Origin: an uncultured Candidatus Saccharibacteria bacterium
GTDB taxonomy: Bacteria > Patescibacteriota > Minisyncoccia > Phycocordibacterales > PALSA-1337
DNA: 64,000 nucleotides
Direction of reading: 5' to 3'
NCBI GenBank assembly: GCA_964406895.1
Contig: CAYOTK010000003.1
Location: forward strand, 9,529 to 73,528
The notes beneath the pieces were generated by a model. It was not told the origin of the DNA. It worked only from the letters and a program-made list of their open reading frames with translations, and ran no database searches. How positions within the stretch are numbered: position 1 is the first letter of the stretch; the number at the start of each line of letters is the position of its first letter. The position numbers and the translations under genes were made by a program. This document shows, one piece after another, positions 1 through 64,000 of the stretch.

Positions 1-9
1 GCGGGCGCA

Positions 10-330
10 GTGTCGGCTAACGAACTTCTTCCATCGATTTTGAAGGGCTACATCAATCAAGCTTTCGGCCTGAGGGAGCTGGTAGGCATTTGTGGCGCGG
101 GCCTCCAGTTCTACCGAAGACACTTCGACCCAACCTTTTCCTACTACGGATGGGCTGGGCTTGTGCGGGCGAAATTTGATGGGAAAGCGGAAGAAGAGGA
201 CTTGGTTCCTTGTGTTGTGGTGAACACAGATGGAACGCCACTTATCCTTTGGCGTCGGGTGAACAATTTGTTTTTTGCCCCCACGGACGTCTCGCTTCTC
301 TACAGAGATCCGCCCATCATCTGCACCTGA
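10..330 (+). CDS. hypothetical protein in a high-GC island. It starts at GTG at 10 and the reading frame stays open to the window edge, so it may be 5'-truncated
   Basis: A 106-aa ORF in a ~58% GC block, followed by a hairpin plus T-run (361-398) and then the palindromic element at 399-423. I see no recognisable domain. Confidence 0.3.
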   Translation: MSANELLPSILKGYINQAFGLRELVGICGAGLQFYRRHFDPTFSYYGWAGLVRAKFDGKAEEEDLVPCVVVNTDGTPLILWRRVNNLFFAPTDVSLLYRDPPIICT

Positions 331-360
331 GGCATTATTCGCACTCATGCTCTTTCACCC

Positions 361-398
361 CGCCGCTTGGCTTGTCCGAGCGGCTGGTTTTTTTATGA
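361..398 (+). terminator. rho-independent terminator candidate for the island-1 ORF
   Basis: ccgcttgg-cttgt-ccgagcgg hairpin (8 bp including one G-U pair) followed by ctggttttttt. Confidence 0.4.
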
Positions 399-429
399 GG
401 TCGGACCTTCAAAAGGTCCGACCTCAAAA
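397..429. repeat. palindromic repeat element copy 1 (GGTCGGACC-ttcaaaa-GGTCCGACC)
   Basis: Perfect 9-bp stem with a 7-nt loop. A near-identical copy, with the same GA/AAAA flanks, occurs at 50702-50735. Confidence 0.55.
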
Positions 430-469
430 CTTAATGAGTTATGCACAGAAAAATGTTTTAAAGTTTATC

Positions 470-510
470 AAAGTGGTATATAATATCAACCAAGTGGGAA
501 GAAGTAGCAA
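470..510 (+). promoter_or_regulatory. mraZ promoter region with candidate MraZ operator repeats
   Basis: TATAAT at 479-484. AGTGGT, AGTGGG and AGTAGC hexamers start at 472, 493 and 504, a spacing of 21 and 11 bp. This resembles the GTGGG direct repeats bound by MraZ upstream of dcw operons. Confidence 0.35.
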
Positions 511-536
511 ATAAGTTACTCCATCTCGCGGCATAT

Positions 537-5293: not shown

Positions 5294-5365
5294 GGCCCTA
5301 TCGTCTAATGGTTAGGACACGGCCTTCTCAAGGCTGTAATCCGGGTTCGAGTCCCGGTAGGGTCA
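5294..5365 (+). tRNA. tRNA-Glu (anticodon CUC)
   Basis: 72-nt cloverleaf folded by hand. Acceptor GGCCCTA/TAGGGTC, D-arm GTCT/GGAC, anticodon stem CGGCC/GGCTG with loop TTCTCAA, T-arm CCGGG-TTCGAGT-CCCGG. No CCA is encoded. Confidence 0.85.
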
Positions 5366-5478
5366 CAAAATTTCCTTAATAATATAGACTGACCTTGTTT
5401 CGTTGCCCAATTTAATGATATGTGTTATTGTTTGTTTTGTATTGAAACCGGCTTTTGTGAGCCGAGAAAGGACGACTG

Positions 5479-5643
5479 ATGAAAGTAATAAAAGCATTGC
5501 TGGGGGCACTGGCGATTACGGCAATATCCTGCACCTTACTCGCTCTCACGGGGGGTGTGCCTGACATGGAAAAGCTTCCGTGGAACGGCGGGCAGATGTT
5601 TGTCACAGCGCTTGTTGTGCTCTTGATCTACAACAAAAAATAG
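5479..5643 (+). CDS. 54-aa two-TM membrane peptide in a high-GC mini-island next to the tRNA 3' end (below the cutoff of the ORF track)
   Basis: MKVIKALLGALAITAISC...LIYNKK. GAAAGGA lies 7 nt before the ATG. The segment is ~55% GC against a ~33% backbone. Confidence 0.35.
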   Translation: MKVIKALLGALAITAISCTLLALTGGVPDMEKLPWNGGQMFVTALVVLLIYNKK

Positions 5644-5694
5644 TCCTGACAGGAGCATACAGAGGTTCTGGCTTCGGTCAGGACTTTCTGTTTT
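5644..5694 (+). terminator. hairpin plus T-run downstream of the small ORF
   Basis: gtcctgac...gtcaggac (8-bp stem, 25-nt loop) followed by tttctgtttt. Confidence 0.35.
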
Positions 5695-5720
5695 ATGACA
5701 AAAGATGCTAAGCTTATACT

Positions 5721-5987
5721 ATGAACGAGCAAGAAATTGCCAGAGAAATAGAACTCTTGAAAACTCGAAATCAACGAGTAGAAGCTGATAAGGCTTGGGA
5801 AGTAAGCTGGTCTCGCAGACTACTTATCGCACTTATAACTTTTATTGTTGCCAGTATTTGGTTAAGAGTTATTGAGGAAAACAATGTGTTCTTTAAAGCG
5901 GTAGTCCCAACCGCGGGCTATCTATTGTCTACAATTTCTATTCCGTTCATCAAGAAATTTTGGATAAATAAAATATGCAATTCTTAG
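5721..5987 (+). CDS. hypothetical membrane protein
   Basis: 88 aa with an N-terminal coiled-coil-like stretch and then a TM helix. Confidence 0.4.
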   Translation: MNEQEIAREIELLKTRNQRVEADKAWEVSWSRRLLIALITFIVASIWLRVIEENNVFFKAVVPTAGYLLSTISIPFIKKFWINKICNS

Positions 5988-6074
5988 AAAGATATCAAAA
6001 ACTAAAGCCAGCAATTGTCGCCATCTTAGGTAGAATTTTTACTGAATAAATATCAAGACAGGATTCTAAATAAT

Positions 6075-7384: not shown

Positions 7385-7675
7385 TTGAATTTGAACATTC
7401 AAAACCTCAAGTTTATGACAAATGAAGAATCAAGTATCGATCTGCTTGCGACAGCATCTCCCCCTCAATTGACTGTTGAAATCGAAGGACGAGAACCCAT
7501 CATTGTTGTGCCTGAATTTGATTCTCTGGCTGAGGGTCTCTGTGCAGCTATCGCGGTGCGTTGCCCAGAACTCGGGTGTGTAACAGTAGAAGATGTGGTG
7601 AAGTGTGTGCAGGTGCTCGCAATCAACACTTCGACGCCCTATATCAAGATCCGATTCGTTCCTTTGCCAGGGTGA
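7385..7675 (+). CDS. hypothetical protein (~48% GC)
   Basis: 96 aa. Preceded by TTGACA-N17-TAGTCT at 7359-7387 and followed by a terminator at 7718-7750. Confidence 0.4.
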   Translation: MNLNIQNLKFMTNEESSIDLLATASPPQLTVEIEGREPIIVVPEFDSLAEGLCAAIAVRCPELGCVTVEDVVKCVQVLAINTSTPYIKIRFVPLPG

Positions 7676-7717
7676 CTAGGGCTGATGGTTTACGATCCGG
7701 TTGTTGATGGTCTCAAG

Positions 7718-7750
7718 AGGGAACGTGATGAACGTTTCCTCTTTTTGTAT
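7718..7750 (+). terminator. rho-independent terminator
   Basis: gagggaacg-N6-cgtttcctc followed by tttttgtat. Confidence 0.5.
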
Positions 7751-7801
7751 TATCAAAAGACAATTATTATGTAAGTATTTTTGAATTTAATATATTTATA
7801 C

Positions 7802-7836
7802 AAAAAAAGAGGCTGGAACAAGTCCAGCCCCTTTTG
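7802..7836. terminator. bidirectional rho-independent terminator
   Basis: aaaaaaa-gaggctgga-acaag-tccagcc-cctttt. An A-run precedes it and a T-run follows it. Confidence 0.55.
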
Positions 7837-7856
7837 AGTTCGTGGGGCGACGCCAA

Positions 7857-8645
7857 TCAGTGTCGCCGCCTCCATTCTTGGTGGTATCCACGACCTTTCC
7901 GACCGCGGCCATCAGTCCAACCGTTTTCGCCGGGTTTGGGCTTTTTTCCGCGATTGCACCCGCCGGCTGCCATAACCAGCTCTTCGGGACTTTTGTCTCC
8001 GGAGGTTTCTTCGCCGGATTCTCCAGTAAGACTCTCGGTGTCCGGTCCGAAAATTCCCGGACTCCACTCACGCACCGTTGTCTCGATGGTGGCCGGCAGC
8101 TTCGCTTGAGGCAAAACGGTTAAGACCGGTGCGGTTTCAGTGATGATCACCGATTGATGGCCGTTTCGCGCCGGTTTGTTTGGTTTCATGGGAATGACCT
8201 TGCCATTGAGAGCCTTTTCCAGCTCCGCCAGGCCGTTTTTGTTTTCCGCATCACGAAGGTAGAAGTGTTTGTACCCCCATACGTAAGCCCGGGGTTTTTC
8301 GCTGTCGTAGGTCGGCGGTCGATTATCCAGGATGTAAAGGATCTTATTTCCGACCCGAGGTGGTTGGTTGAAAACCTCGCGCTTAATGTAGGGGTCGCCG
8401 TTATCGTTGGCGGAGACCTTACGACTTCGATTCATTTCGAAGTAGATCTCTACGCCGCTCGCGAGATCAATTGCCAGGCCGCACCAGCGAGTCGGATTAT
8501 ACTCAGTCACTCTCGCCGTTCGGATTTTGCCCCAAATATACTGAGTTGCACTCATGTAGTTTTTCTCCCATCTCCCCAAACAAACCATTATGGTCGAGCA
8601 TAGCTCTTGGAATATCCTCATTTGATCAACCGCCAAGCTGATCAA
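7857..8645 (-). CDS. hypothetical protein in a high-GC island, with an Arg/Gly-rich C-terminal tail (start may be the internal ATG at 8555)
   Basis: 262-aa ORF in a ~57% GC block. A TTGACA-N17-TAGTCT promoter-like motif lies upstream on the minus strand (8670-8700). C-terminus ...GRGRKGRGYHQEWRRRH. No family recognised. Confidence 0.45.
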   Translation of the reverse strand: MISLAVDQMRIFQELCSTIMVCLGRWEKNYMSATQYIWGKIRTARVTEYNPTRWCGLAIDLASGVEIYFEMNRSRKVSANDNGDPYIKREVFNQPPRVGNKILYILDNRPPTYDSEKPRAYVWGYKHFYLRDAENKNGLAELEKALNGKVIPMKPNKPARNGHQSVIITETAPVLTVLPQAKLPATIETTVREWSPGIFGPDTESLTGESGEETSGDKSPEELVMAAGGCNRGKKPKPGENGWTDGRGRKGRGYHQEWRRRH

Positions 8646-8761
8646 TCAAGGTTTTCCATGTTTGGAGTTCTGCACGAGAGACTACCATAATAGTGTAGAA
8701 ATGTCAAACTATCGTGAGGCATTTTCAACAAGTAAGTGCACCATAAAATAAAACATACTTC

Positions 8762-9214: not shown

Positions 9215-12200
9215 ATGGACAGCGACGATAGCTACCCACGCCGAACCAGCGACCATAATGATACCAATAAGTTATCTTTCAAAAAGATAATTTTTCTTTT
9301 AGTTGGCATAATGTTCTTGCCTGGCATAGTTTATTCAGCGACTGGCGAGGTGCAGTTCAGTATTGCTTCTCAATATCAAATTGGTACGGCAGGAAGTTAT
9401 TTCAACAACGGCAATACTATTGCAAAAGTTTTCGATGGTGATTTGACTACTTGGTGGGATGCCAACCAATCATATGCGAATGGTTCAAATGTTGGTCTGG
9501 ATCTTACCGTAAATGCCAAGGTTACAAGAATGAGAGTGGCACCAAGAACTGGTTATACCGTGAGATTATTCGGTGCCGTATTGCAGGGAGCGACGGTAAG
9601 TTCAAGTACAGGACCTTGGACAACAATTTATACGATTCCTAGCTTCCCACCGTTCTATCCTCAGAGGCAACTCAATGAGATCTCTATAGATACTTCAGGA
9701 CAATATTACAGATATTATAGATTGGTGATGCCAAACGGGGCATACGGCTCGCTAGCGGAGATGAGATTGATAGGAGTAGCTTCTAGTACGACGCCATATT
9801 TACCAGTGGCGCCAACAATAAGTCCGATGGGAGGGAGGTTTCATCAACCGATACAAGTCAGTCTAAGTAGTCTGACAACAGACGCAACAATTTACTACAC
9901 AACAGATGGTACGACTCCAACATATAGTGGAGGTTCTCCACAAGGGACAACGCAGTTATATTCAGGACCGTTTATGGTAACAAATACTGCGACGACGACC
10001 GTCAAAGCTATTGCAGTTAGTGCTTCAACATATGTTTCTGAAGTTTCTGATACAGCGTATTTCTATATCAATCCATCATTTTATTCAGGCTGGAATTGGT
10101 ATGACACTTCAGGGCACCTCATAGAATCTCACGATGGCGGAATAAGTTATTTCAATGGTAAGTATTATTGGTACGGAGAAACTCTCAATAATAGTTCTCC
10201 CGAAATTGAGACGTTGGGTGCAACAGTTTATTCCTCGAATGACTTGCTCAATTGGAAATATGAAGGAATGGCATTATACGTCAACAATGCCTATAAACTA
10301 GAAAGACCGCATGTAATATACAATGCGACTTCAAGCACTTATGTTATGTGGGCACACAATGTGACGAATGCAAGAGCCGTCATTGCCACATCCAGTTCAC
10401 CGCTTGGACCATTTACAGCGTCTACTACATCTCAAAATCCAGACGGTATGGGCATGAATGATATGACTTTGTACAAGGATACAGACGGGACGGCATATCT
10501 TATATATACTTCAAGTGATAATACAAAGATGGTTATTTCTCGTTTAACGAGTGACTACGCTACTACTTCAAATACTTACATCACCTCATCAGCGAATGCC
10601 AATCGTAGCGCGCCTGCCGTATTCAAACGCGGTAGCATATATTTCTTGCTCAACTCCGGTCAAAACAGTTGGACAGCTACCGCCAATAAATATTCGACTT
10701 CAACAAGTATGTTGGGTACTTGGTCGACCCTTACAAATCCATTCCAATCAAGTGCAGAAGAAGATTATACTTTGGCCTATCATTCTCAAACCACTGATGT
10801 TCTTACGGTGCAGGGCAGAACAGATGGTTATGTATATATAGGCGACAGATTCGATGGTTCTGCGACCGCCTCGGGTTCTCTTTATAACAGTAGACATGTT
10901 TGGTTACCAATTACATTTCCTTATGCAGGAATGATGTCCATATCTTGGGCAAGTAGCTGGAGTTTGGACAGTGCATTTACTTCAGCGACCCTGCCAACTT
11001 CAGTTTCCAATCTTACAGCGACCAAAAACGGTTTATCAGTCAATCTTTCTTGGACTAACAATGAAACAAATTCATATAGCTTGTATTTGGATAGGGCTAC
11101 TGATAGTGCATTTACTCAAAATTTCATTTCAATATTTGCAAGTACAACTTTGAGTTCGTATACAGATTCAAATATCGTTAATGATACAAAATATTATTAT
11201 CGAATTCGAGTTATCACTGCGGCCGGGGTCAGCACATCATCGACTGTTATCGGTGATTTCTTACTATCTTCAGATACCACGGCTCCACAAGGCGAAATAA
11301 CAGTTCCGAGCAATGGAGCAACTGTGGTAGGCAGAACTGTTACACTTACTGCCTCTTCTTCAGATAATATTCAGGTCAGTTCTGTCCAATTCCAAGTCGA
11401 TAATGTAAACGTGGGTTCTTCCGGTGCAACATCGCCATATTCTATAACTTGGGATTCTACATCTGTATCAGACGGAGATCACACTATTCATGTTGTTGTA
11501 ACAGATAGTTCAGGCAATATCGCTACTTCAAGCGACGTAACTGTTCATGTTGCCAATCAGACTGTTACTGTAACTCCCGATGTCTCTACAATAGTCCAGA
11601 ATACAACCGGCAATACTATTGTTATAACAGGTAATGCGACATCATGGACGCCAGGCACTCCAGGTTCACCAACATTTAGTATAAGTGGGGGAACAGGTAC
11701 AACAATTACTAGTCAGACAGTTTCCAATAGCACAACAGCCACCCTAACTATTTCAGCGGGAAGTGCTGTTGGTACTTTCAAGATAATAGCGCCCGATAGT
11801 AATGCTTCAACAACTATAACTGTTTCGGCGGATACCATCGCACCTTTAGTTAGTATTACAACGCCGTCAGATGGCGCAACTCTTTCTGGATCAACTGTTA
11901 CTCTTACAGCATCGTCATCCGACAATGCAGCGGTTACAAGTGTTCAGTTCAAATTAGACAATGTAAGTATCGGTTCTTCAGGTGCAACATCGCCATATTC
12001 TATTACCTGGAATTCAACATCGGTGTCGGATGGTACCCACACTTTGGTTGCTGTCGTTGCGGACGGAGCAGGGAATATAAGTTCTTCTACAGCTATCAGT
12101 GTAACCATCAACAATTCTGTTGTGGCTTCTGTTTCGACATCAAACGCTTCATCCGTAGATATGTTTTCGGCTGTATTCAATGGTGTTATTTCAAATGATG

Positions 12201-22589: not shown

Positions 22590-22610
22590 ACCAGCCATAG
22601 ACGGTTGTGC

Positions 22611-22640
22611 GCTCCATGGTTTCGTCCAGTGGAGCGCGGG
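22611..22640. repeat. GC-rich hairpin at the left edge of a high-GC island
   Basis: gcgctccatgg...ccagtggagcgc (10-11 bp stem), immediately 3' of the minus-strand ORF stop. No T-run follows. Confidence 0.4.
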
Positions 22641-22841
22641 TTAATCGTCGTGATGCCAACGCTCGTCTTCTTCCCGCTCCTTTTCTTCAAGAGCTGAAGC
22701 GACGTGATTGGCCCAATTGTTGCCACCTACATTTTTGTGTCTGACCGGCGACATCTTGTTACTTCCGTGGGAGGATCGAAACTCTTCTTGCATTCTTTTT
22801 ATAATTTCAGCTGGATCCTCATAGGGTTGTTCAGGTTTCAT
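22641..22841 (-). CDS. hypothetical 66-aa acidic protein in a high-GC island
   Basis: TTGACA-N16-TACAAT lies upstream on the minus strand (22865-22895). Confidence 0.35.
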   Translation of the reverse strand: MKPEQPYEDPAEIIKRMQEEFRSSHGSNKMSPVRHKNVGGNNWANHVASALEEKEREEDERWHHDD

Positions 22842-22962
22842 TTGTCCATGATTGTACGCTACTTAGTTTTTTTGTCAAATGTGGATAAACTACAATTTAT
22901 GTTGCATAAAAACTATTTATATATGTTACAATTATGTTAAATATATCTAAATAAATAAAAAA

Positions 22963-24315: not shown

Positions 24316-24329
24316 TTCATATTGCAGTA

Positions 24330-24360
24330 AGCAAAAAGGCTCGACCAGTGGTCGAGCCTC
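24330..24360. terminator. hairpin terminator (functional on the minus strand; bidirectional candidate)
   Basis: aaaaa-ggctcgacc-agtg-ggtcgagcc (perfect 9-bp stem). A T-run follows on the minus strand. Confidence 0.5.
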
Positions 24361-24386
24361 GCGAAATGGAGCATGGGTAGGTTTGT

Positions 24387-25466
24387 TTACCTTCCCATCA
24401 GATGACCCCGCTGGGCGTTTGAAAGCCCCACAGGGGTAACCTTGAAAAACCTGAGAGTTTCCGGTTTCTCGACCAACAACTTCCACTGGTTCGACGTGCT
24501 TGCGCTCGTCATGCCATAACCCTCGAGGCTCCATTCTCGAAGATTAGTTGTCGATTCGACGATGAACCCTTGAAAAGGATCGCCTTTTACAATCACGGCG
24601 ATTCCCTCTAGAGATTTGACGATACCACTTTTGGGCTTTTCGAACTCAATCTCGAGCCCAGTGTTGCCATTGAACTTGTGGTACCGATCATTCTCCTGTA
24701 CGAAGATGGTAATCTTGTACACACTGCCGCAGGCAAATTCCCGACTAGTCCGCAGGTATTTCTCACCCACGATTTGGAGGTTTGTAGTCCCATCCAAGGA
24801 GTCGTAGTTTGTAATAACGACTCCACTTTGGTCGGAAACGATCATTCGTGCCCACGTGATTCCTGGCAAGGCCAGGATACTGAGATTCTCCTCAAGCCTC
24901 GGCGTGATCTCGCGCAAGACCTGTGGAATTGTGTAGTCGTTGCCGGCCTTGTCGTACTTAAACGTCGTAGCCGACTGAAACGAGACGGGGTTGTCGACAT
25001 CAACATCGGCCATCCCTGCCACGATCGTCAGGGGAAGTTCTTTGTTGACCGTATTTGTTTTCAACCCACTCTCTGCGACTTTGACGGCGTTTAACCGTAC
25101 CTTGTCGCAGAGATCGGCGAATCCCTTGATGGCATAGTAGTCGTAGGAAGACTTTCCCACAACCTTGCCATTTTGGAACATGGACACCCTAACAAAGTAT
25201 ACGTTAGAGGCCCAGTAGTCCTTCACCCAACTTTCCTCGCCCATTACGAGCCGAAGCGGAGTGACACCGTCTGCGAGCATCGTTCCCGAAAGAACGATGA
25301 AGGCGGTTACGAGGGCCGCCAGCCCTTTGGTCATGATCTTCATCGTCTTTCTTTCTCTCCCATCGCTGGGAGTTAGATTTTGTGGTTCCGACGTCTTCCG
25401 ACATCGTCGAATCCGTACGGCAACCATACCGTACTTCTTCAGGTTCTTCAGTTTTGAAAGAACCAC
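24387..25466 (-). CDS. hypothetical secreted protein in a high-GC island (alternative start 25343, MKIM..., with signal peptide)
   Basis: 359-aa ORF in a ~52% GC block. TTGCAT-N17-TAAAAT with an extended TG lies upstream (25480-25520). Confidence 0.45.
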   Translation of the reverse strand: MVLSKLKNLKKYGMVAVRIRRCRKTSEPQNLTPSDGRERKTMKIMTKGLAALVTAFIVLSGTMLADGVTPLRLVMGEESWVKDYWASNVYFVRVSMFQNGKVVGKSSYDYYAIKGFADLCDKVRLNAVKVAESGLKTNTVNKELPLTIVAGMADVDVDNPVSFQSATTFKYDKAGNDYTIPQVLREITPRLEENLSILALPGITWARMIVSDQSGVVITNYDSLDGTTNLQIVGEKYLRTSREFACGSVYKITIFVQENDRYHKFNGNTGLEIEFEKPKSGIVKSLEGIAVIVKGDPFQGFIVESTTNLREWSLEGYGMTSASTSNQWKLLVEKPETLRFFKVTPVGLSNAQRGHLMGR

Positions 25467-25562
25467 CTTTCGACACTATTTTAACATACATAAAGATAAA
25501 ATGCAAGCAAGGGTATTTATCCACAATAAGCCTTAACAAGGCCTTGTCTCTATGGTTTAGTT

Positions 25563-34400: not shown

Positions 34401-34583
34401 ATAAGTAAAATATGATTGTTAGTGACTGAAAGCATAACATTTGCAATGAAATTATGCAAGGTGGTGTACTATTGCATTAAATCGATATTTCTCTCAAGAC
34501 TCACAACATTTATGTTTTGAATCTAGTTGAGTGCCCCACATTGCTGTGAGGCCGAGATTACTTCAATCTCGAAAGTGATTGGG

Positions 34584-35306
34584 TTAACTTCCAGTTGACG
34601 CTCTCGTCGCCTTGTCTTTTGCGAGTTCAGCCGCTGCTTGCCTGTAGATTTCTCCTTTATCGAGCGTCAAACCGAAGTCAATCGTGGCTGTGTTCCAGAT
34701 TCGATCAAATGCGTTCTCGCAATGTCCGATCCAGTTGCCAGCGTGAATCACGCTGTGGCGAGCCACATTCGGTACGACCCTAATTGACTCGAATTCGTCT
34801 TGTGCTGCGAGAACTCTGTAGGCAGCACTGATGAGTCGTTGCGAGACCGTCGATTCACCGAGTCCGTCCCAGTAGGGATTTCCTTGACCGAGGAAGTTGA
34901 GCGAACCAACTGACTCACGGAGTCGGGCGAACATTTCTTCGCAGGTCTCGACTTTTTCCCTTGCGGCTTGGTTTTTGTTTTCTAAACGATCAAGCCATTT
35001 GAGACACGCAAACGACATGGAGCCAATCACTACGACCCAAGGAACGCCATAGGTGCCGTGGGAAGTAATAGCAATTACCAACATTGCCGCGGTGAGACCG
35101 TAAAGCAATAATAGGATACGGTTGCTTTTTTTACAGTTTCGACTAACCTGATTAATAGCTACGTTTCTTTCTTGCGCGGCCTTAATCAAGCTGTGACCCT
35201 GGTTCACCTTGTTCTCCCACTTCAAGCGGAGACTCTCCGAGACGACACGCATCAAGCACTCGATTTCTTCGTTACTAATTTTCATGGATCTTTCTTTCAA
35301 TGCCAT
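34584..35306 (-). CDS. hypothetical membrane protein in a high-GC island
   Basis: 240-aa ORF at ~54% GC with a central TM helix. No family recognised. Confidence 0.4.
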   Translation of the reverse strand: MALKERSMKISNEEIECLMRVVSESLRLKWENKVNQGHSLIKAAQERNVAINQVSRNCKKSNRILLLLYGLTAAMLVIAITSHGTYGVPWVVVIGSMSFACLKWLDRLENKNQAAREKVETCEEMFARLRESVGSLNFLGQGNPYWDGLGESTVSQRLISAAYRVLAAQDEFESIRVVPNVARHSVIHAGNWIGHCENAFDRIWNTATIDFGLTLDKGEIYRQAAAELAKDKATRASTGS

Positions 35307-35561
35307 TTTAGACCATGGGGTTGTAGCCCATCTCTACAAGCTTGTGACCTGTAGAAATACTTCATGCAGTCTAGAACAGTTGGCGGCTATTCTTACATAA
35401 TTATACTATACATGTGTCGACAATGTCAATATTATGTACAGTTAACCATATGGGGTGATGTTCGATTAACCTTTTGGTATAATAATAATAAATCACGCGT
35501 GTTCATATAAAAAGAAGAGGCCAGAGGTTAGTCCGGCTTCTCTGTGTATTCGGTTCCTTAG

Positions 35562-35804
35562 TTACTCTTCACGAGACAATCCGAAGTCGCGACGTCGCTT
35601 GTTTCTGCGCATCTCAGTGACCGAATCGCTTATGCCCGCTACTTCGCTGAATCCACCTCTACAAAGGTGGTGTTGCTCGTGCGGAGGGCCATGATGGTGC
35701 CAACACCTTTTTTCATCGGTAAGCGCCGCTGAAGAAATTATTTCGAGGTGTTTCCGGGTGGGCTTAAGCCCCTCGAGATAAAGACCTATTAAATGTTTTA
35801 GCAT
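35562..35804 (-). CDS. hypothetical 80-aa His/Cys-rich protein in a high-GC island
   Basis: CWHHHGPPHEQHHLC. TTGACA and TATAAT lie just upstream on the minus strand. Confidence 0.3.
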   Translation of the reverse strand: MLKHLIGLYLEGLKPTRKHLEIISSAALTDEKRCWHHHGPPHEQHHLCRGGFSEVAGISDSVTEMRRNKRRRDFGLSREE

Positions 35805-36113
35805 ATTTTCATGATTATAGTACTATGAATAAGTATAGTATGTCAACTTTTGGTAATAAAACATTCTGTATGTAATTAATACGTATAATGCATCGTCTCG
35901 TCATAATTTAAGAGTCATTTCTACCAATCCAGTCCTCATTTTTTGCAGTATGGTCATAATAAATGGCTTAAAATAAGGGTATTTTGGGTCAAAAATATGG
36001 CTCTATATAAGGGTTTTGGGGGTGTAGACCCATTGACAGGGAAGTGCAAATCTGCTACACTTATTGCACAATGAGTTAGTGAGCGTCATGCTTACAAAAC
36101 TCGTTTTTAATTT

Positions 36114-45151: not shown

Positions 45152-45202
45152 GTCTGAATTATAACTTATAGAAGTCGGACCTCCAAGAGGTTGAACCTCG
45201 TA

Positions 45203-49847: not shown

Positions 49848-49878
49848 GGTTGTTAATGATTAAGTTTTTAAATTTATA

Positions 49879-49914
49879 TTGACAACTAATAGTTATTGAC
49901 TTACAATTGTGTTG
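49879..49914 (+). promoter_or_regulatory. consensus sigma70-type promoter
   Basis: TTGACA-N17-TACAAT. Confidence 0.5.
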
Positions 49915-49935
49915 AACCCTAAACCAACTGATCAC

Positions 49936-50073
49936 ATGATTGCCACGATATTGGCCGATCTCCTTTCAAATCCCTTCGTATATCTGGAAGCGTTCATAGT
50001 TGGGGCGCTGATCTGGACGCTCATGGGCTTCCCCGAATTTTGGACGCGCAAGTTCTGGGATCGCAAATCATAG
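49936..50073 (+). CDS. 45-aa hydrophobic peptide in a high-GC island
   Basis: MIATILADLLSNPFVYLEAFIVGALIWTLMGFPEFWTRKFWDRKS. A promoter lies upstream and a terminator downstream. Below the ORF-track cutoff. Confidence 0.35.
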   Translation: MIATILADLLSNPFVYLEAFIVGALIWTLMGFPEFWTRKFWDRKS

Positions 50074-50097
50074 CGCGTCTTGTCCCATTTCACTCGT

Positions 50098-50133
50098 CCG
50101 ACTGGCGTCATGCTGGTCGGGCGGCTTTTTTTT
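50098..50133 (+). terminator. rho-independent terminator
   Basis: ccgactggc-gtcat-gctggtcgg followed by gcggcttttttttt. Confidence 0.45.
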
Positions 50134-50217
50134 ACAACGAACTTACTAATCCACAAAGTTCTATCTCGCAAAGTTGATCCTTGAATTTATCTTATTTTTC
50201 CTAATTATTTCCAACAT

Positions 50218-50253
50218 TGACAAATAGGGTCAAATAATGCTATAATGCTTGCA
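50218..50253 (+). promoter_or_regulatory. consensus sigma70-type promoter
   Basis: TTGACA-N18-TATAAT. Confidence 0.5.
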
Positions 50254-50351
50254 GTTTTAACATCGCTCTTTGACCAAAATGTAGACTGCGGAAGTGAGGG
50301 TAACGAGGCAACGACGTCTCGCATCTTCACAAACCGCGGTTTACCAAACTT

Positions 50352-50603
50352 ATGGAAACTTTACTGTCGATTTTGTCTCTGAGTTTCATTCTCTTTGTGG
50401 CTTTATTCGGCTCTGTCACCGGATTTTGTCGCTGTGCGAAGTGCAAGAGTTGGAATGTCAGGTACCGAGTTGGTCGGAGTTTCGATAACCACCATCCCGA
50501 TCACTACTGGAGGAGTGAATATTTCTTGTGCAAAAAATGTGGGACGGAAACTCAGATCAGCCATAGTCTGGAAAGACAAAGCGACTCCCCATTTTTTGAT
50601 TGA
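50352..50603 (+). CDS. 83-aa protein with an N-terminal TM and a 4-Cys zinc-ribbon-like region
   Basis: CRCAKC...CKKC spacing, in a high-GC island. A terminator lies at 50638-50665. Confidence 0.4.
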   Translation: METLLSILSLSFILFVALFGSVTGFCRCAKCKSWNVRYRVGRSFDNHHPDHYWRSEYFLCKKCGTETQISHSLERQSDSPFFD

Positions 50604-50637
50604 GATCGCCCACTTTCAGGGCAGAATGTAACTCCGA

Positions 50638-50665
50638 AGCCGTGCGCAAGTGCGGCTTTTGTTTT
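50638..50665 (+). terminator. rho-independent terminator
   Basis: agccgtgc-gcaa-gtgcggct followed by tttgtttt. Confidence 0.4.
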
Positions 50666-50701
50666 ACCTTATTTGTCATTTCAATGAACTTACCAATCCA
50701 C

Positions 50702-50735
50702 GAGGTCGGACCTCTAAAAGGTCCGACCTAAAAAA
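50702..50735. repeat. palindromic repeat element copy 2 (GGTCGGACC-tctaaaa-GGTCCGACC)
   Basis: Near-identical to the copy at 397-429. It lies just 3' of an island ORF terminator, as copy 1 does. Confidence 0.55.
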
Positions 50736-50799
50736 TTAGAAAGCAGGCGCTCTTATTTTTATATTAGTTAAAAGATAAAGTGAAGAATAAGGAGAAACT

Positions 50800-50943
50800 A
50801 TGTCACTTGTATCAAACCAAGAAATGTCAGTTGTATTTGAAATACATGTAGGACAAGGTAATGAGAAACGATTGACTTTGTTTTGTGCGGTTGAACATGG
50901 ATCTGCCTTGAGCGATATGACTGGCTCTATGGAAAGAATATGA
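50800..50943 (+). CDS. 47-aa ORF with a strong Shine-Dalgarno, in an AT-rich segment
   Basis: AAGGAG 7 nt before the ATG. It overlaps the next ORF by ATGA. Confidence 0.3.
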   Translation: MSLVSNQEMSVVFEIHVGQGNEKRLTLFCAVEHGSALSDMTGSMERI

Positions 50944-51131
50944 CCCTTGAGTACGCCGTCGATCTCATAGACTTCGAATCTGACACGCACCAAAGAGCCG
51001 TTGTTATCTGTAACAACTCTGGTGAATATTCCCTTCTGGTTTATATTAGAAATACTGAGCATGTTCTCATTTTACTAGAATGTGGGCGGAGGTCAAGTCA
51101 ATTTATACAAAATCCCCGACCGATCGGTTGA
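50940..51131 (+). CDS. 63-aa ORF translationally coupled to the previous ORF
   Basis: ATGA overlap. It ends inside a GC-rich hairpin. Confidence 0.3.
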   Translation: MTLEYAVDLIDFESDTHQRAVVICNNSGEYSLLVYIRNTEHVLILLECGRRSSQFIQNPRPIG

Positions 51132-51147
51132 ACCGAAGGGCCGGGGG
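51100..51147 (-). terminator. GC-rich hairpin terminator for the minus-strand two-gene operon
   Basis: ccccgacc-gatcggttgaaccgaag-ggccgggg stem, with a T-rich tract 3' on the minus strand. Confidence 0.4.
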
Positions 51148-51193
51148 TGACAGAATTACCGTATGGATCTCACCTTGTCAACAGCATCGAACT

Positions 51194-51586
51194 TTACCTC
51201 AAAGACGCTAGAAGACCACTCACACTTGACGAGGTAACCGAAAGGGTGAATTCATCGTCAGTCGAAATTACTTCAAGTGTCCACAGTGGTGATTGAAGCT
51301 TGATGGTTCCGCCTCCACCAACACCATGCACGCCAGAGACCGTTATTTCTTGCGCGTGCACAGAGGGAAGACCAAGTTCGGGCAACTTGCTCACCAACTG
51401 ACCTAGGGGTGTACAGCCAAGCTCGGTCAGAGCACTGTCAATGTTGTGTCCGTTCGGCATCAGATTTGGCGTCTCGTTCGCAATCGCTACTTGTTCGAAT
51501 AACTGCAGGAACTCTGCCATTTGGACAGCTTGAGAGTTCCCACCATCCAACAATTTCAACAGGTTGATATTTGTTTGCATAACCAT
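51194..51586 (-). CDS. hypothetical 130-aa protein with a Gly-rich loop (GVHGVGGGGT), in a high-GC island
   Basis: Second gene of a two-gene minus-strand operon. No family recognised. Confidence 0.45.
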   Translation of the reverse strand: MVMQTNINLLKLLDGGNSQAVQMAEFLQLFEQVAIANETPNLMPNGHNIDSALTELGCTPLGQLVSKLPELGLPSVHAQEITVSGVHGVGGGGTIKLQSPLWTLEVISTDDEFTLSVTSSSVSGLLASLR

Positions 51587-51592
51587 ACTCCT

Positions 51593-51904
51593 TCACTTAT
51601 TCCTCCGGGGTGAGCCGGGGAACTTAGTTGTTAGCAACACTTCCAATTTCTCCGCGCCGTGCGGGGAGTTGAGTATTGCTGTGAGTGCACCAAGAGAATC
51701 CTTTCCGTGGTCCCGAATCGCGCATGCATACCAGCGTCCAGCTTTCGCTTTCTTCTGGCTTCCGGTGTATTTAAACACCAGTGCATATGCTTTTGTGGGA
51801 CTTGAAGCAGATTCAACAAGGTTGAGCAATTTAGGACAAGTCCAAATTGCCTTGGAGCGTGTCAGATAACCAATGATTTCGACAGCGTCGTCCTCAGAGT
51901 ACAT
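51593..51904 (-). CDS. hypothetical 103-aa basic protein in a high-GC island
   Basis: First gene of the operon. A TTGTAA-N17-TG-TATAAT promoter and an AGGAA SD lie upstream on the minus strand (~51925-51985). Confidence 0.45.
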   Translation of the reverse strand: MYSEDDAVEIIGYLTRSKAIWTCPKLLNLVESASSPTKAYALVFKYTGSQKKAKAGRWYACAIRDHGKDSLGALTAILNSPHGAEKLEVLLTTKFPGSPRRNK

Positions 51905-52056
51905 GACGTGTTCCTTTCCTTTTCAAAGTGCCATTCAGAATGATGTTCCAAATACAGCTGTATCTGGCATTCTTACTGACAGTAATTATAACACGAGATT
52001 AAATATATTACAAGTCATAAAACATTCGAATATACCATCTTATTTTTTACGCTTAA

Positions 52057-52205
52057 GAAGCACCTGCATATACTTTTTGCACTCACCGCAAAATCGCCAT
52101 TCCAAATTGCAACCGTATTCGCTTCCACGGCTTCAGCGAATACGGGCAATTTGTTCATGGCTCAATCGCATTGCGGTGAGTGCAAAAAGTATATGCAGGT
52201 GCTTC
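52057..52205. repeat. 35-bp perfect inverted repeat with nested inner inverted repeats, forming a ~150-nt extended hairpin (MITE-like or structured-RNA element)
   Basis: Left arm 52057-52091 (gaagcacctgcatatactttttgcactcaccgcaa) is the exact reverse complement of the right arm 52171-52205. Inner pairs are caaattgc/gcaatttg and ccgtattcgc/gcgaatacgg around a 13-nt loop. Confidence 0.7.
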
Positions 52206-52232
52206 TCTACCCAATGTAAAAAATAGATGTAA

Positions 52233-52829
52233 TTAACTCCTAAACTCCCCAACCTTAACTCTCGGCGCCTTGAGTAACTTACCATTCAATGAGTAACCTT
52301 TTTGCAATACCTGTATAACAACTTGATCTTGTTTTTTGTCATCAACAGCAACGTGTTCAATCGCCTCATCTCTGTTGTGATCGAATTTTTCGCCTATAGG
52401 ATTGACTTCCTTCCAGCCATTTTCTCCGAGAACTTTCTTGAGTTGATTGTAGATATATTCGACACCTACACGCCAATTTTTGTCGACTTTCTCCCATGAT
52501 TCCTTGTTACCAATAGCCATGTCGAAACTTTCTAGGACAGGAATAAGGTCGCCAACAAGTCCTTCATTGGCATATTTCATGAATTCAGTGCGGTCAGCTT
52601 CATCACGCTTGCGAGCATTGATGAGATCTGCCTTGGCTCTTTGCCAACCGGTCAAATACTCTAGTTTCTCTGTTTCGGCTTTCTTAAGTTTTTCTTTGAG
52701 TGTCTTGATGATCTCTTTTGCGCTTTCTTCCGCCACGACAGAATCATCTACATTATCCGAATCAGTGTCGGATGAAATGTCAGCATCAATTTCAGGAACA
52801 ATATCTTTGTCGTCTAAATTATTGGCCAT
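52233..52829 (-). CDS. grpE: nucleotide exchange factor GrpE
   Basis: Coiled-coil N-terminus and a GrpE C-terminal domain (LIPVLESFDMA...). Confidence 0.9.
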   Translation of the reverse strand: MANNLDDKDIVPEIDADISSDTDSDNVDDSVVAEESAKEIIKTLKEKLKKAETEKLEYLTGWQRAKADLINARKRDEADRTEFMKYANEGLVGDLIPVLESFDMAIGNKESWEKVDKNWRVGVEYIYNQLKKVLGENGWKEVNPIGEKFDHNRDEAIEHVAVDDKKQDQVVIQVLQKGYSLNGKLLKAPRVKVGEFRS

Positions 52830-61325: not shown

Positions 61326-61390
61326 ACGACAATCATAATATGAATTTGAACAAATGTCATGTATTCAATTATGACTGCGAAATATATTAA

Positions 61391-63166
61391 TTACTTCAAA
61401 AGCTTTTCCAACTCATTGACATCATTCTCGATAATTTTCAAGCCACCCTCAAATACGCTCTTATCTTTGAGATCAATACCAATTTTTCTTAGAATGTTTT
61501 CAGGAGAATCAGAAGAACCTGCAGACAAGAATTGTTCTATTGATTTCCAGAATGATTTGTCTTGTTTATATTTCTGTAAGAGAGTCATGCTAACAAGCAA
61601 TCCATAAGCATAGGTATAAACATAGAAGAAATACCTAAGATGAGGCCAAGAAACATAACTTAAACCATCAGAATTTTCAAATTTCACAGAAGGACCCATA
61701 TAGGCAGACATATTACGATTATGAATATTCAATATCTCATTATTATCAACATAGCCTTTCGCTCGAATAGTGTTGTGAAGTTCTAGTTCAAACTTGAAAC
61801 AAGCGACTTGTCTGAATATGGTCGAAATAGAATCAGAAATTTTGTTGTGGAGGAAAATTATCTTGCTTTTCTTGTCCAGATCTTTTATCACACTATCAAA
61901 AGCAATTTTCTCAAATAAAGTGCTCGCAGTTTCAGCAAGTGAAATAGAATAATCCTCGTATATGACACTTTGCTTTTTCGACATTTCACTGTGGATAGCG
62001 TGCCCCATTTCGTGAGCAAATGTTAGGAAAGCATTGAGAGTATCGTCGTGGTTCAACATTATGTGTGTGGTGATTTTATGAGAAGAAGCACAATATGCAC
62101 CAACCTTTTTACCTACCTTAATCTCTGCATCAATAACACCTTCCTTGATATATGTATCCAAATATTTGATATATTCAGGATTGAGTTCAGAGTACATTTG
62201 TTTAAGTCTCTTAACACTATCATCAAAAGTAAACTTGGTTTTCGACTCATCAACCTTCAGACTTCTTTCGTAGTATTTAAGATATTTTAGTTTGTGAATT
62301 TTGGCTTTTAACTTATAGAATTTATGCGCAATATGATTGTGAGCAGAAACGACATCGATAAGATTTTCTATTACGTTTGCTTCATTGTCATTCATCAGTA
62401 ATGTTGCAGAGTAAGGCTTTTCGAAACCACGAAGTTCATCGTCAATTTTTTTATCAGTAAATATCGCATTGATTTCTGCTTCAGAGAATTCACTAACATG
62501 GCCTAGTTCAATATTAACAAGCTCATTTAGCTTGGCTCTTTCTTTGGCACTTTTTGTCTGACTGATTTTTTTTGTGGCTAGAGTAAGTGGCAATTTCTTA
62601 TTTTTCCAAATTATAGATCTCTTACCGAGAATTTTATCATTTCCATTTACCCATGATTCATATGAAGGCAGCGATTTCAAACTCAAAATTTTTTCTTCAG
62701 ATTCAGTGAGATTGTATTTGGCCTGTTCGAATACTCGCTTTAATAACTGTTTGTAATGACTAAGTTTTGGTTCAGCCAGGAATTTGACCTGATTGTCTTT
62801 TGAGATTTTGCCCAAACTTATACTGAAGAATGTAAGATTATTCAATATCTTCGAATGGCGATTTGATACAATAGCAGACTTTGCTAAGGCTTTACTATTA
62901 CCAGAATCAATCGTTAACAATCGTGATAAATAGAAAATAGGTTTATCAATTATTTCATCATTCATTCTTTCATTATCTTGCAGTGCTTGTAACAATAGAT
63001 CCGGATTATTCAAATACGGCTTATCGATCGTATTGTATTTCTTGCAGAATTCGTCAACTTTTTTCTCAATTTGGTCAAGATCAATATCAATCTGTGGGTC
63101 ATTCGGGGACTTGTATATGTTTTCTAACTTCCAGACTGGCAATTTTGATTTCTTATTTTTTTTCAT
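61391..63166 (-). CDS. pepF: oligoendopeptidase F (M3B family)
   Basis: HEMGHAIH zinc-binding HExxH motif; 591 aa. Confidence 0.85.
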   Translation of the reverse strand: MKKNKKSKLPVWKLENIYKSPNDPQIDIDLDQIEKKVDEFCKKYNTIDKPYLNNPDLLLQALQDNERMNDEIIDKPIFYLSRLLTIDSGNSKALAKSAIVSNRHSKILNNLTFFSISLGKISKDNQVKFLAEPKLSHYKQLLKRVFEQAKYNLTESEEKILSLKSLPSYESWVNGNDKILGKRSIIWKNKKLPLTLATKKISQTKSAKERAKLNELVNIELGHVSEFSEAEINAIFTDKKIDDELRGFEKPYSATLLMNDNEANVIENLIDVVSAHNHIAHKFYKLKAKIHKLKYLKYYERSLKVDESKTKFTFDDSVKRLKQMYSELNPEYIKYLDTYIKEGVIDAEIKVGKKVGAYCASSHKITTHIMLNHDDTLNAFLTFAHEMGHAIHSEMSKKQSVIYEDYSISLAETASTLFEKIAFDSVIKDLDKKSKIIFLHNKISDSISTIFRQVACFKFELELHNTIRAKGYVDNNEILNIHNRNMSAYMGPSVKFENSDGLSYVSWPHLRYFFYVYTYAYGLLVSMTLLQKYKQDKSFWKSIEQFLSAGSSDSPENILRKIGIDLKDKSVFEGGLKIIENDVNELEKLLK

Positions 63167-63764
63167 TTTGATTGTTGATTTTTGCTAGTATCTCCATGTC
63201 TTTCTTGAGATTGGGAATGTTATTTGGATTGTATACTCCCATGCATGGATGATATTGGATAACGACATTGATATTACCATAAGTAGTTTTTGCATCAAAA
63301 CTTCTACCATGAAGTTGACCTATCGGTGCAAGATGTGAATTTAATCCAAACTTTTCCATAATATAACCCATTGAATACCTGCCGAGCGCAACTATAATCT
63401 TTGGTTTAATAATTTCGATCTGCCTGTCTAGAAATGGTCCGTAGATTTTTATTTCTTCCTTCGTTGGGTCGCGATTTTCCGGCGGTCTATCTTTGACGAT
63501 GTTTGTAATGTAAATCAAGTTTCGAGTAATCTTTATATGCTCGAGTAATTGATCCAGTATTTTACCCGCAGCGCCACAAAAAGGTTTGCCTGTCTTGGCT
63601 TCATTTCTTCCTGGTGCTTCACCTACGAACATCATTTTTGCATCAAGACTTCCCTCTCCTATGACTGGAAAGAAATTATTTTGAGTTCTGTACTCATACA
63701 GCGGGGACTCTTTTAACGCAATAATTTCTTCATGAATAATGCGTATTTGTTCTGATTTAGTCAT
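63153..63764 (-). CDS. uracil-DNA glycosylase, family 4
   Basis: GEAPGRNEAKTGKPFCGAAGKILDQLL. Start set at the internal ATG (MTKSEQ...). Confidence 0.75.
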   Translation of the reverse strand: MTKSEQIRIIHEEIIALKESPLYEYRTQNNFFPVIGEGSLDAKMMFVGEAPGRNEAKTGKPFCGAAGKILDQLLEHIKITRNLIYITNIVKDRPPENRDPTKEEIKIYGPFLDRQIEIIKPKIIVALGRYSMGYIMEKFGLNSHLAPIGQLHGRSFDAKTTYGNINVVIQYHPCMGVYNPNNIPNLKKDMEILAKINNQNEKK

Positions 63765-64000
63765 GAGGATATTATGGCATTTTTCAATAAATATGCCTAT
63801 AAACAGGTCCGCCGCCAACCCATGGGGTAAGCGGCAGATTGAGTGCGGAGGCAAAGATCAAGTCTCGTTTGCGCCCGCCGAAACCAGTAGCTCATACAGG
63901 GCAGTGAGGCATAGCACGACGAGAAGCGCTACGGGTCCGAATACGTAGCACAATGTACCGGCGCATTTCCACGGATGCGGATGATTGCTTTTTGTGGTTT

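Follow-up and report, generated by a model that had tools for sequence, protein, structure and literature searches.

Short GC-rich islands in a Patescibacteria chromosome as probable conserved accessory-gene slots with recombinational allele turnover

We have analysed a 64,000-nucleotide (nt) chromosomal segment, hereafter the window, from a member of the Paceibacterota (Patescibacteria, or candidate phyla radiation, CPR), in which short GC-rich islands are scattered through an AT-rich backbone. The reading that we favour, with moderate confidence, is that these islands are conserved slots for accessory genes whose alleles are turned over by recombination. Each slot would be an insulated transcription unit of one or two genes set between housekeeping operons. 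A promoter of sigma-70 type precedes a small coding sequence (CDS), in some units with a long, conserved leader between the two, and an intrinsic terminator closes the unit. The regulatory frame, which was checked for islands 3b, 4 and 5, would be inherited vertically and conserved to the same degree as the backbone. The CDS within that frame would be a lineage-restricted gene with non-synonymous evolution roughly 2-30 times faster than that of its neighbours, and about half of the slot genes are predicted to encode secreted or membrane proteins. At island 5, the locus for which enough relatives are available, divergent alleles would replace the CDS via homologous recombination anchored in the conserved flanks. 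Such turnover would proceed without dedicated mobility machinery, and occasionally a non-homologous gene would take the slot. This turnover may be driven by selection, diversifying or frequency-dependent, that acts on functions of the cell envelope or of host interaction.

The overall GC content of the window is 39.3%. An earlier note on this DNA had singled out nine blocks, all of which are indeed enriched: GC is 0.535 at 1-430, 0.490 at 5440-5700, 0.495 at 7385-8650, 0.487 at 22590-22860, 0.495 at 24320-25560, 0.484 at 34500-35330, 0.487 at 35540-35810, 0.440 at 49870-52230 and 0.520 at 63780-64000, against 0.382 in the remaining 88.8% of the window, a contrast of 6-15 points. The note had, however, placed the backbone at 30-35% GC and the islands at 48-58%; the backbone lies at ~38% and the islands at 44-53.5%, so that each estimate missed by ~5-8 points. 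For five of the nine blocks no equal-length non-island segment attains the GC of the block, and for the other four, 14-18 of ~1,700-2,200 such segments do (<1%). Mean GC at the first, second and third codon positions (GC1/GC2/GC3) is 0.53/0.42/0.53 in 14 open reading frames (ORFs) of the islands and 0.46/0.35/0.34 in 54 backbone genes, the third-position difference (0.53 +/- 0.09 vs 0.34 +/- 0.05) being significant at P=2.8e-7 (Mann-Whitney). Tetranucleotide usage correlates with that of the backbone at 0.12-0.38 for islands and at 0.53-0.85 for control backbone chunks; the compositional discontinuity described in the note is therefore real. GC by itself cannot define an island, because the native genes mraZ, dnaK and dnaB have values of 0.44-0.47. 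Nor is 49870-52230 the single island that it had been taken for. It is a mosaic with successive GC values of 0.46, 0.42, 0.39, 0.49 and 0.38 and at least four transcription units, and it contains plus-strand units for proteins of 45 and 83 amino acids (aa), an AT-rich 108-aa ORF, a minus-strand operon of 103-aa and 130-aa ORFs, and a 151-nt hairpin. Block 1-430 is a GC-rich unit as described, but it belongs to an operon of two genes (147 aa and 166 aa) that extends past the window start. The islands are as follows, in window coordinates.

Island 1: 1..330, plus strand, last 109 codons (C-terminal part) of a 166-aa ORF that is truncated at the window start; GC 0.53, GC3 0.60.
Island 1, 3' end: 362..425, plus strand, terminator at 362-384, then the palindrome GAGGTCGGACC-N7-GGTCCGACCTC at 397-425.
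Island 2: 5479..5643, plus strand, 54-aa hydrophobic protein with a segment resembling a transmembrane (TM) helix, 113 nt past tRNA-Glu(CTC); hairpin at 5662-5687; GC3 0.62.
Island 3a: 7415..7675, plus strand, 86-aa acidic soluble ORF; terminator at 7715-7743; GC 0.47.
Island 3b: 7805..8705, minus strand, promoter and ~150-nt leader (8556-8705), 232-aa ORF (7857-8555), terminator (7835-7805); GC3 0.59.
Island 4: 22641..22878, minus strand, TTGACA-16-TACAAT promoter (22878-22851) and 66-aa charged ORF (22641-22841), which starts 9 nt past the -10 box.
Island 5: 24336..25506, minus strand, TTGCAT-17-TAAAAT promoter (~25506-25478), ~125-nt leader, 318-aa ORF (24387-25343), terminator (24360-24336).
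Island 6: 34584..35429, minus strand, perfect TTGACA-18-TATAAT promoter (35429-35400), 240-aa two-TM helical protein (34584-35306).
Island 7: 35520..35846, minus strand, TTGACA-18-TACTAT promoter (35846-35817), 80-aa His-rich ORF (35562-35804), terminator (35537-35520); GC 0.50.
Island 8a: 49879..50156, plus strand, TTGACA-17-TACAAT promoter, 45-aa one-TM ORF (49936-50074), terminator with a 14-bp stem (50094-50124), 18-nt motif.
Island 8b: 50217..50730, plus strand, perfect TG-extended promoter (50217-50246), 83-aa ORF with a TM segment and CxxC/CxxC (50352-50603), terminator (50636-50659).
Island 8b, 3' end: plus strand, 18-nt motif (50686-50703) and palindrome (50702-50730).
Island 8d/e: 51194..52013, minus strand, operon with a promoter-like site (52013-51985), a 103-aa ORF (51593-51904) and a 130-aa ORF (51194-51586); GC 0.49, GC3 0.50.
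Island 9: 63858..63998, minus strand, C-terminal 46 codons of a hydrophobic ORF running past the window end.

The complete promoter-ORF-hairpin unit that had been ascribed to every block was found for islands 1, 3a, 3b, 5, 7, 8a and 8b, and in part for islands 2, 4, 6 and 8d/e. Seven promoter-like sites match at least 11 of 12 positions, and four of these are correctly oriented upstream of island ORFs (35429-35400 and 22878-22851 on the minus strand; 49879-49907 and 50217-50246 on the plus strand). They lie 9-106 nt 5' of the start codons and include both perfect 12/12 sites. With island upstream zones occupying ~1.6% of strand space, our arithmetic gives a binomial probability of ~2e-6 for this placement. 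Generic promoter-like sites showed no overall excess in two of the three scanned segments (72 vs 62 expected; 61 vs 60), so only the top-scoring sites are informative. Among the ten strongest terminator-like hairpins, seven are at island 3' ends, just past the stop codons (362, 5662, 7715, 7835, 24360, 50094 and 50636). The island hairpins have 6-14-bp GC stems followed by T-runs, which identifies them as terminators. The slots measure 0.25-1.3 kb, hold one or two genes and occur at a density of ~1.4 per 10 kb. Their placement had been read correctly: the blocks sit between housekeeping genes (neighbours include mraZ, murE, valS, dnaB, rpmA, dnaK and grpE), tRNA-Glu(CTC) at 5294-5366 immediately precedes island 2, and a 2.4-kb spacer separates grpE (52233-52829) from dnaK (47925-49847).

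Syntenic islands were recovered from relatives, designated here by L-numbers for the compared contigs or loci (L008-L013, L094, L095 and L102-L106). The sister species comprises L008 and related contigs (six contigs, including GCA_964627975.1), L102 is a closer strain, and L095 is a near-identical strain. Islands 1, 3b, 4 and 5 are present in all relatives examined, and islands 2 and 3a are absent in L008. Both genes of island 1 lie between mraZ and aspS in L008, at 77% and 86% identity, with GC of 0.52 and 0.49 and a ratio of non-synonymous to synonymous divergence (dN/dS) of 0.37; the full operon, with the 147-aa four-TM partner encoded upstream, just outside the window, was read in L001. 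A search of 5.8 billion proteins gave six homologues of the 232-aa protein of island 3b, which align along its entire length with 50-62% identity. The three whose context was read (six loci for P0005, L102 for P0006) occupy the same slot beside a giant protein with a GH43 domain; a NUDIX gene precedes the island in L102, as in the window, and not in the sister-species loci. Island 3b in L008 and L102 has GC of 0.56-0.57 and GC3 of 0.61-0.63 in a 39% GC backbone. Island 5 has seven homologues among the 5.8 billion proteins (46-95% identity), and all six whose context was read are directly upstream of the gene for a PKD-domain protein. Where the contig reaches, yqeY flanks the island on its other, upstream side, directly in L094 and L103 and with an intervening NUDIX gene in L105. 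The island 5 orthologues in L094, L095, L103, L105 and L106 have GC of 0.50-0.54 and GC3 of 0.59-0.68. Island 4 has an orthologue at 53% identity in the same slot of L095; L094 retains the promoter, its spacing to the ATG and an MNPEQ start, and the other ~60 codons cannot be aligned and lie beyond BLAST detection. Taken together, orthologues of islands 1, 3b, 4 and 5 have GC3 of 0.42-0.68 vs 0.2-0.4 in their neighbours. The comparison of syntenic loci that had been suggested thus runs counter to recent acquisition for islands 1, 3b, 4 and 5: because relatives carry them in the same slots and with the same composition, these islands are, by the refuting condition set in the note itself, old residents and not recent insertions. 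Islands 4-7 were not found in the dnaB neighbourhood of the closest representatives in GTDB (81% and 78% DnaB identity), where synteny is lost past four genes.

Within these conserved positions the island genes diverge far more than what surrounds them. Over the same genome pairs, protein identity is 46-77% for islands and 76-99% for neighbours, and non-synonymous divergence (dN, Nei-Gojobori) is 0.20-0.52 for islands and 0.002-0.20 for neighbours, that is, roughly 2-30 times higher in the islands; for island 3b it is 0.31-0.37 vs 0.02-0.04. The dN/dS of islands, 0.22-0.48, compared with 0.01-0.11 in 17 of 18 neighbouring genes, indicates real protein-coding genes under weak purifying selection, and reading frames, lengths and start codons are preserved in orthologues at 46-77% identity. 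The frame around the CDS behaves differently. Between the window and L102, the promoter, ~150-nt leader and terminator of island 3b are ~95% identical and the CDS ~55-65% (nucleotide). Between the window and L095, identity amounts to 92-100% in the backbone, 69-75% in island 4, 46-53% in the centre of island 5 and 88-100% at the 5' end of island 5.

Allele genealogies at the island 4/5 locus depart from that of the backbone. Synonymous divergence (dS) between the window and L095 is 1.36 for island 5 and 0.71 for island 4, and 0.146 for a HisK gene that is adjacent to island 4 and 1.8 kb from island 5. Between the window and L105, the order is reversed, with dS of 0.185 for island 5 and 0.543 for the flanking yqeY. 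Because the island exceeds its flank in one pair and falls below it in the other, elevated mutation is ruled out, and allele exchange by recombination can explain both; the history of island 5 alleles is thus decoupled from that of the backbone. Slot contents also change outright. The island 6 slot holds an unrelated GC-rich 348-aa ORF in L094, and in L105 an additional NUDIX gene, which is AT-rich, separates yqeY from island 5. L008 lacks a ~690-bp segment (~5375-6060) that carries island 2 together with an 88-aa ORF, and its tRNA-Glu abuts the next gene. Island 3a has no homologue in L008, where AT-rich Ham1/acetyltransferase and SET genes occupy the same position. The suggestion of horizontal acquisition in the earlier note therefore stands in part: exchange acts on at least one island (the decoupled island 5), the island 6 slot can hold a non-homologous gene, and island 2 is missing in L008.

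The proteins themselves bear out the statement that they could be assigned to no family, as none exceeded threshold against Pfam, PHROGs or PADLOC. Below threshold, the 147-aa four-TM partner in island 1 has a full-length EamA-like match, and the 83-aa protein of island 8b has a weak Prok-RING_2 match; a search of PDB sequences with islands 3b and 1 gave no match. A signal peptide or TM segment is predicted in 8 of 15 island proteins. The 318-aa protein of island 5 (GC3 0.64) has a predicted signal peptide and, among its homologues, conserved ends and a variable centre. Its AlphaFold2 (AF2) model, with a mean predicted local distance difference test (pLDDT) score of 65, is beta-rich with weak FN3/Ig-like matches; this fits a secreted adhesin-like protein, which island 5 may encode, although we do not regard this as established. 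No record was returned by exact database look-up of the 318-aa start variant of island 5 or of the protein designated P0001. Island 6 belongs to a genuine family; clustering at 50% identity gives 43 representatives, each ~225-250 aa long. The AF2 model (pLDDT 93), for which a family of 30 sequences was used, shows a long hairpin of helices, two of them TM, and structure comparison gave no specific neighbour. A metagenome scan with a profile from an 8-sequence alignment located island 6 homologues in other Patescibacteria as single genes amid unrelated housekeeping genes. No homologue of the 130-aa island 8d protein was found beyond its own species, and all matches of island 8d/e are confined to that species at 97-100% identity.

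Several observations weigh against slots fed by recombining alleles. For islands 3b and 5, the search for homologues yielded close, AT-rich relatives alone, with no GC-rich host or donor pool observed. Flexible genes in the slots can also be AT-rich (NUDIX in L105; Ham1 and SET in L008), so flexibility alone cannot explain high GC. The clear decoupling of dS comes from one strain pair in each direction (L095 and L105), both at the island 4/5 locus. Because backbone dS between species is already near saturation, at 0.5-1.5+, fast protein evolution alone could explain most between-species contrasts, and the Nei-Gojobori (NG86) estimates are rough for compositionally skewed genes. Finally, homologues of island 8d/e were found in its own species only.

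Three candidate causes of GC-richness were weighed: ongoing import, an old import that is still ameliorating, and local maintenance. The value of ~50% GC may be the composition of a wider Patescibacteria gene pool that supplies alleles, or the product of a local GC-maintaining force. Island 6 homologues have GC of 0.41-0.48 in hosts of both 38% and 50% GC, and this independence from host GC hints at an intra-phylum gene pool of intermediate GC. In Patescibacteria metagenome-assembled genomes (MAGs), up to 13% of genome length has been attributed to horizontal gene transfer (HGT), with most individual transfers coming from within Patescibacteria (PMC12455944), which is consistent with such a pool. 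It is possible, but in our judgement doubtful, that each island was acquired once, from a donor of ~50-60% GC in the ancestor of the genus-level clade, and has since been inherited vertically under relaxed constraint with incomplete amelioration. The syntenic positions in all relatives examined, codon-position values (0.53/0.42/0.53) resembling those of ordinary genes in a ~50% GC genome, and the existence of close relatives of 55% GC are all in keeping with this. So is an excess of polarised third-position changes from strong (G or C) to weak (A or T) bases in island 3b (38 S-to-W vs 21 W-to-S, with the ratio reversed in backbone controls), which would fit ongoing decay. A binomial test of polarised counts (P=0.001) was discarded, as the controls were strongly biased by parsimony toward apparent W-to-S change. 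However, the two directions are equal at third positions (14 to 14) in the least-diverged pair, and the island-sharing lineages are separated by backbone dS of 0.5-1.5; by our own two-state estimate, decay at the backbone rate since the deepest ancestor in common would need a starting GC3 of at least 1 to leave 0.6. A single ancient acquisition also leaves unexplained why island 5 is closer than its flank in L105 yet far more distant in L095, and why the island 6 slot holds non-homologous cargo.

High GC could instead be maintained in situ, by GC-biased gene conversion (gBGC) at hotspots or by selection on transcripts, for example for resistance to AU-directed RNases or for translational tuning via rare GC-ending codons, in which case composition would say nothing about foreign origin. 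We consider this unlikely. It would account for GC3 of 0.59-0.68 kept in every lineage despite synonymous saturation, for the balanced S-to-W and W-to-S counts in island 5, and for the shift at all three codon positions, which points to a force at the nucleotide level; the island 4/5 locus is, moreover, a demonstrated recombination hotspot. Yet the GC step coincides with ORF borders and does not taper into the flanks, and in GC-rich hosts the island 6 homologues lie under host GC (0.45 vs 0.50), unlike the gBGC prediction. Island mRNAs are not more structured than those of the backbone (mean z -0.41 vs -0.33, P=0.52). The effect of gBGC reported in bacteria is a few GC3 points, not the 20-30 required here. 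A related proposal, which we hold to be conceivable but improbable, is that transcript selection or strong biased gene conversion actively maintains a GC-rich state that is no relic of transfer. This state would be confined to a dedicated set of insulated slots, passed on vertically, in which an ultra-small episymbiont keeps those of its envelope or host-interaction genes that evolve fastest. If so, the genome would have a compositionally distinct second compartment that marks the genes of a symbiont-host or symbiont-phage arms race in Patescibacteria.

Other readings concern what the islands are. An assembly chimera had been raised as a possibility in the earlier note. An assembly or binning chimera, in which GC-rich foreign fragments were joined into an AT-rich contig, is hardly credible and is refuted. 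The compositional discontinuity is its sole support. Across islands 1-3 and 6-7, the window is matched at 100% identity by Logan contigs of 44 kb, 18 kb and 8.9 kb from SRR12487045, and four contigs from Joint Genome Institute (JGI) metagenomes reproduce the junction of grpE and island 8d/e at 99.2-100% identity, so that the junctions of islands 1, 2, 3, 6, 7 and 8d/e are matched at 99-100% by independent assemblies. Orthologous islands occur within the same flanks in at least 10 assemblies from other samples, and promoters and leaders run on from the backbone and are conserved. It is only slightly less improbable that the blocks are structured non-coding RNA genes with incidental ORFs. Such genes are the classic GC signal in AT-rich genomes, GC-rich sequence in such a genome gives chance ORFs, the mean z of minimum free energy (MFE) is -2.9 for island 5, and islands 3b and 5 have conserved leaders that can fold. 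Rfam, however, finds tRNA only, at the gathering threshold and even at E<=1 (tRNA-Glu(CTC) is the sole RNA gene found in the window), and MFE z-scores against dinucleotide shuffles of 47 genes reveal no general structure excess in the islands. Frames, lengths and starts kept at 46-77% identity with dN/dS of 0.2-0.5, as well as the confident island 6 model, speak for proteins. This reading is largely refuted for islands 1, 3b, 5 and 6 and weakly open for the smallest units 2, 7 and 8a. The earlier note had itself preferred a family of mobile mini-cassettes. Islands that are active mobile elements, like integron cassettes, morons or genes borne on miniature inverted-repeat transposable elements (MITEs), inserting site-specifically into intergenic gaps, now appear very unlikely, and this reading is largely refuted. 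In its favour are the self-contained promoter-ORF-hairpin design and atypical composition, the position of island 2 directly 3' of a tRNA and its absence in the sister species, a tyrosine-integrase element beside grpE in other samples of the same strain, and a common palindrome at some island borders. Against it, no integrase or transposase was found in the window, as the note had observed; Pfam matches to recombinases were lacking in the island ORFs and 12 backbone ORFs, to which that scan was limited. Flanking direct repeats at island borders reach 6-10 nt and do not exceed chance (P 0.06-0.99 vs shuffles), there is no duplication of the tRNA end at island 2, and no attC-like sites were found. 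The hairpins are terminators, and island proteins are unrelated to one another, with an 18-nt motif in 8a and 8b as the only common sequence, so that the islands do not form one family. The same genes hold the same slots across species at backbone dS of 0.5-1.5. Relatives were absent from IMG/VR (islands 3b, 5 and 6), INPHARED phages (island 5) and PLSDB plasmids (island 6). The integrase element has GC of only 0.40-0.44, its target is the 3' end of rpsI and not an island, and its integrase, the only one observed, does not adjoin a cassette array. With no direct repeats beyond chance and no recombinase found in the window, exchange in the proposed slots is best attributed to homologous recombination in conserved flanks. 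A diversity-generating retroelement was also considered as a source of variation and rejected: a repeat search of the window gave no pair resembling template and variable repeats (TR/VR) that involves an island, divergence extends over the whole CDS and not a ~100-nt variable region, and no reverse transcriptase was found among the ORFs scanned, which did not comprise every ORF.

Some sequence features associated with the islands are recorded here in their own right. The palindrome GAGGTCGGACC-N7-GGTCCGACCTC, which resembles a repetitive extragenic palindrome (REP), is repeated in the window at 397-425, 50702-50730 and 45171-45207, and in the sister species L008 (18595-18619 and 19745-19769) it flanks island 1 on both sides. 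The 18-nt motif GAACTTACYAATCCACRA occurs at 50139-50156 and 50686-50703, past the terminators of units 8a and 8b (0.1 chance matches expected), a sign that one module may have been duplicated in tandem to give both units. Directly 3' of grpE, at 52056-52206, is a near-perfect 151-nt hairpin whose 36-nt arms pair without a mismatch (100% complementarity) and which also has inner stems; its folding energy is -109.6 kcal/mol (z -16.7), it has no Rfam match, and the Logan assembly breaks within it. The integrase element, which encodes a 360-aa PF00589 protein, abuts grpE in JGI samples of the same strain (L003 1-2733; L004 and L005). It stands where the window has rpsI, with the junction at window position 52922, and ~50 nt upstream the rpsI 3' end (...PQWSKR*) recurs in a second, synonymous version. 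Such an arrangement is typical of integrative elements that insert at the end of a gene and restore it. In the island 3b leader (8556-8705, minus strand; L102 2985-3139; L008 9848-10003), ~60 of ~150 nt are near-invariant in three lineages, and the predicted consensus fold has an energy of -40 kcal/mol and one covarying pair; this leader may be a cis-regulatory RNA. Island 5 has a comparably conserved leader of ~125 nt (25344-25470).

The native gene content of the window includes mraZ-rsmH-ftsL-ftsI-murE, valS, dnaB, recR, rplU, rpmA, rplI, cysS, gltX, murG, ftsW, scpAB, trpS, dnaJ-dnaK, grpE, a block of ribosomal-protein genes with rpoA, and alaS, with names taken in part from Pfam domains and otherwise from a reading of the translations. 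DnaB is 81% identical to that of a Patescibacteria MAG from Hainich groundwater and 78% identical to that of Parcubacteria BP_639. The BP_639 contig (L015, JAXDMJ010000038.1) has GC of 55% and GC3 of 0.82, so genome GC has shifted by more than 15 points inside a family-level group; relatives of the lineage span 30% to 66% GC. The mraZ gene (537-980) is unusually GC-rich for a native gene (GC3 0.51), and its synonymous sites are near-frozen relative to the sister species, with dS of 0.11 where neighbours have 0.5-1.7. The mraZ mRNA folds far better than shuffled sequence (mean z -4.1), and an antisense 146-aa ORF (557-997) is 98.6% conserved, which suggests that mraZ overlaps a structured RNA or a second coding layer. 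The giant protein beside island 3b (9215-15100; 1961 aa, GH43/Big domains) contains an internal duplication of ~3.08 kb at 64-81% nucleotide identity, and in the sister species its gene is split into ORFs of 1780 aa and 201 aa. In the PKD-domain gene, a 53-nt repeat (23077-23129 and 23227-23279; 87% identical, 150 nt apart) encodes the motif GYAWSSNIGWISF, and L095 has lost or exchanged the C-terminal half of the protein, with window ~23400-24000 having no counterpart there.

Slots of this kind would offer a sequence signature with which candidate genes for host attachment or exploitation, mostly unannotatable in Patescibacteria, could be picked from MAGs: a GC step of 10-15 points, a strong promoter and terminator of their own, a fixed slot and hyper-divergent alleles. 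They also call for caution in the inference of HGT. Compositional islands are routinely read as recent transfers, and those described here are old, syntenic and still deviant. The island genes withstand the AT pressure of the genome over saturating synonymous divergence, with re-import, gene conversion and selection as candidate causes.

Among known systems, tRNA-linked genomic islands and the islands of Patescibacteria MAGs (PMC12455944) are likewise of atypical composition, and one unit here is beside a tRNA. The present units are an order of magnitude smaller than the islands that prediction programs report, have no integrase or direct repeats, and are syntenic across species rather than strain-specific. 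Integron cassettes are similar in being short, mostly orphan ORFs that each end in a hairpin-forming sequence, but the islands have no IntI, attI, attC or array and are scattered over 64 kb on both strands. Integron cassettes are typically promoterless, whereas each island unit has its own promoter-like site, and its hairpins are terminators with T-runs. Phage morons, reportedly described by Hendrix and colleagues as promoter-gene-terminator units of deviant composition between phage genes, have an identical anatomy: a sigma-70-type promoter of their own, one small ORF, a factor-independent terminator and deviant composition. The islands differ in that they lie in a cellular chromosome between housekeeping operons at positions conserved across species, without phage genes nearby, PHROG homologues or, for islands 3b, 5 and 6, relatives in IMG/VR. 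Replacement-type flexible genomic islands, or hypervariable regions, are found in Alteromonas, Prochlorococcus and SAR11, where they usually span tens of kilobases, carry genes for glycosylation and surface polysaccharides and are AT-richer than the genome. The slots here measure 0.25-1.3 kb and hold orphan proteins encoded by cargo that is GC-richer than the genome. With those islands they have in common a fixed chromosomal position, conserved flanks, highly divergent or non-homologous content, a bias to cell-envelope or exposed products, and, as proposed for the slots here, exchange by homologous recombination in the flanks without mobility genes; incongruent allele genealogies were found here too, at one locus and in two strains. 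By analogy, the islands resemble miniature replacement-type flexible genomic islands with a moron-like anatomy.

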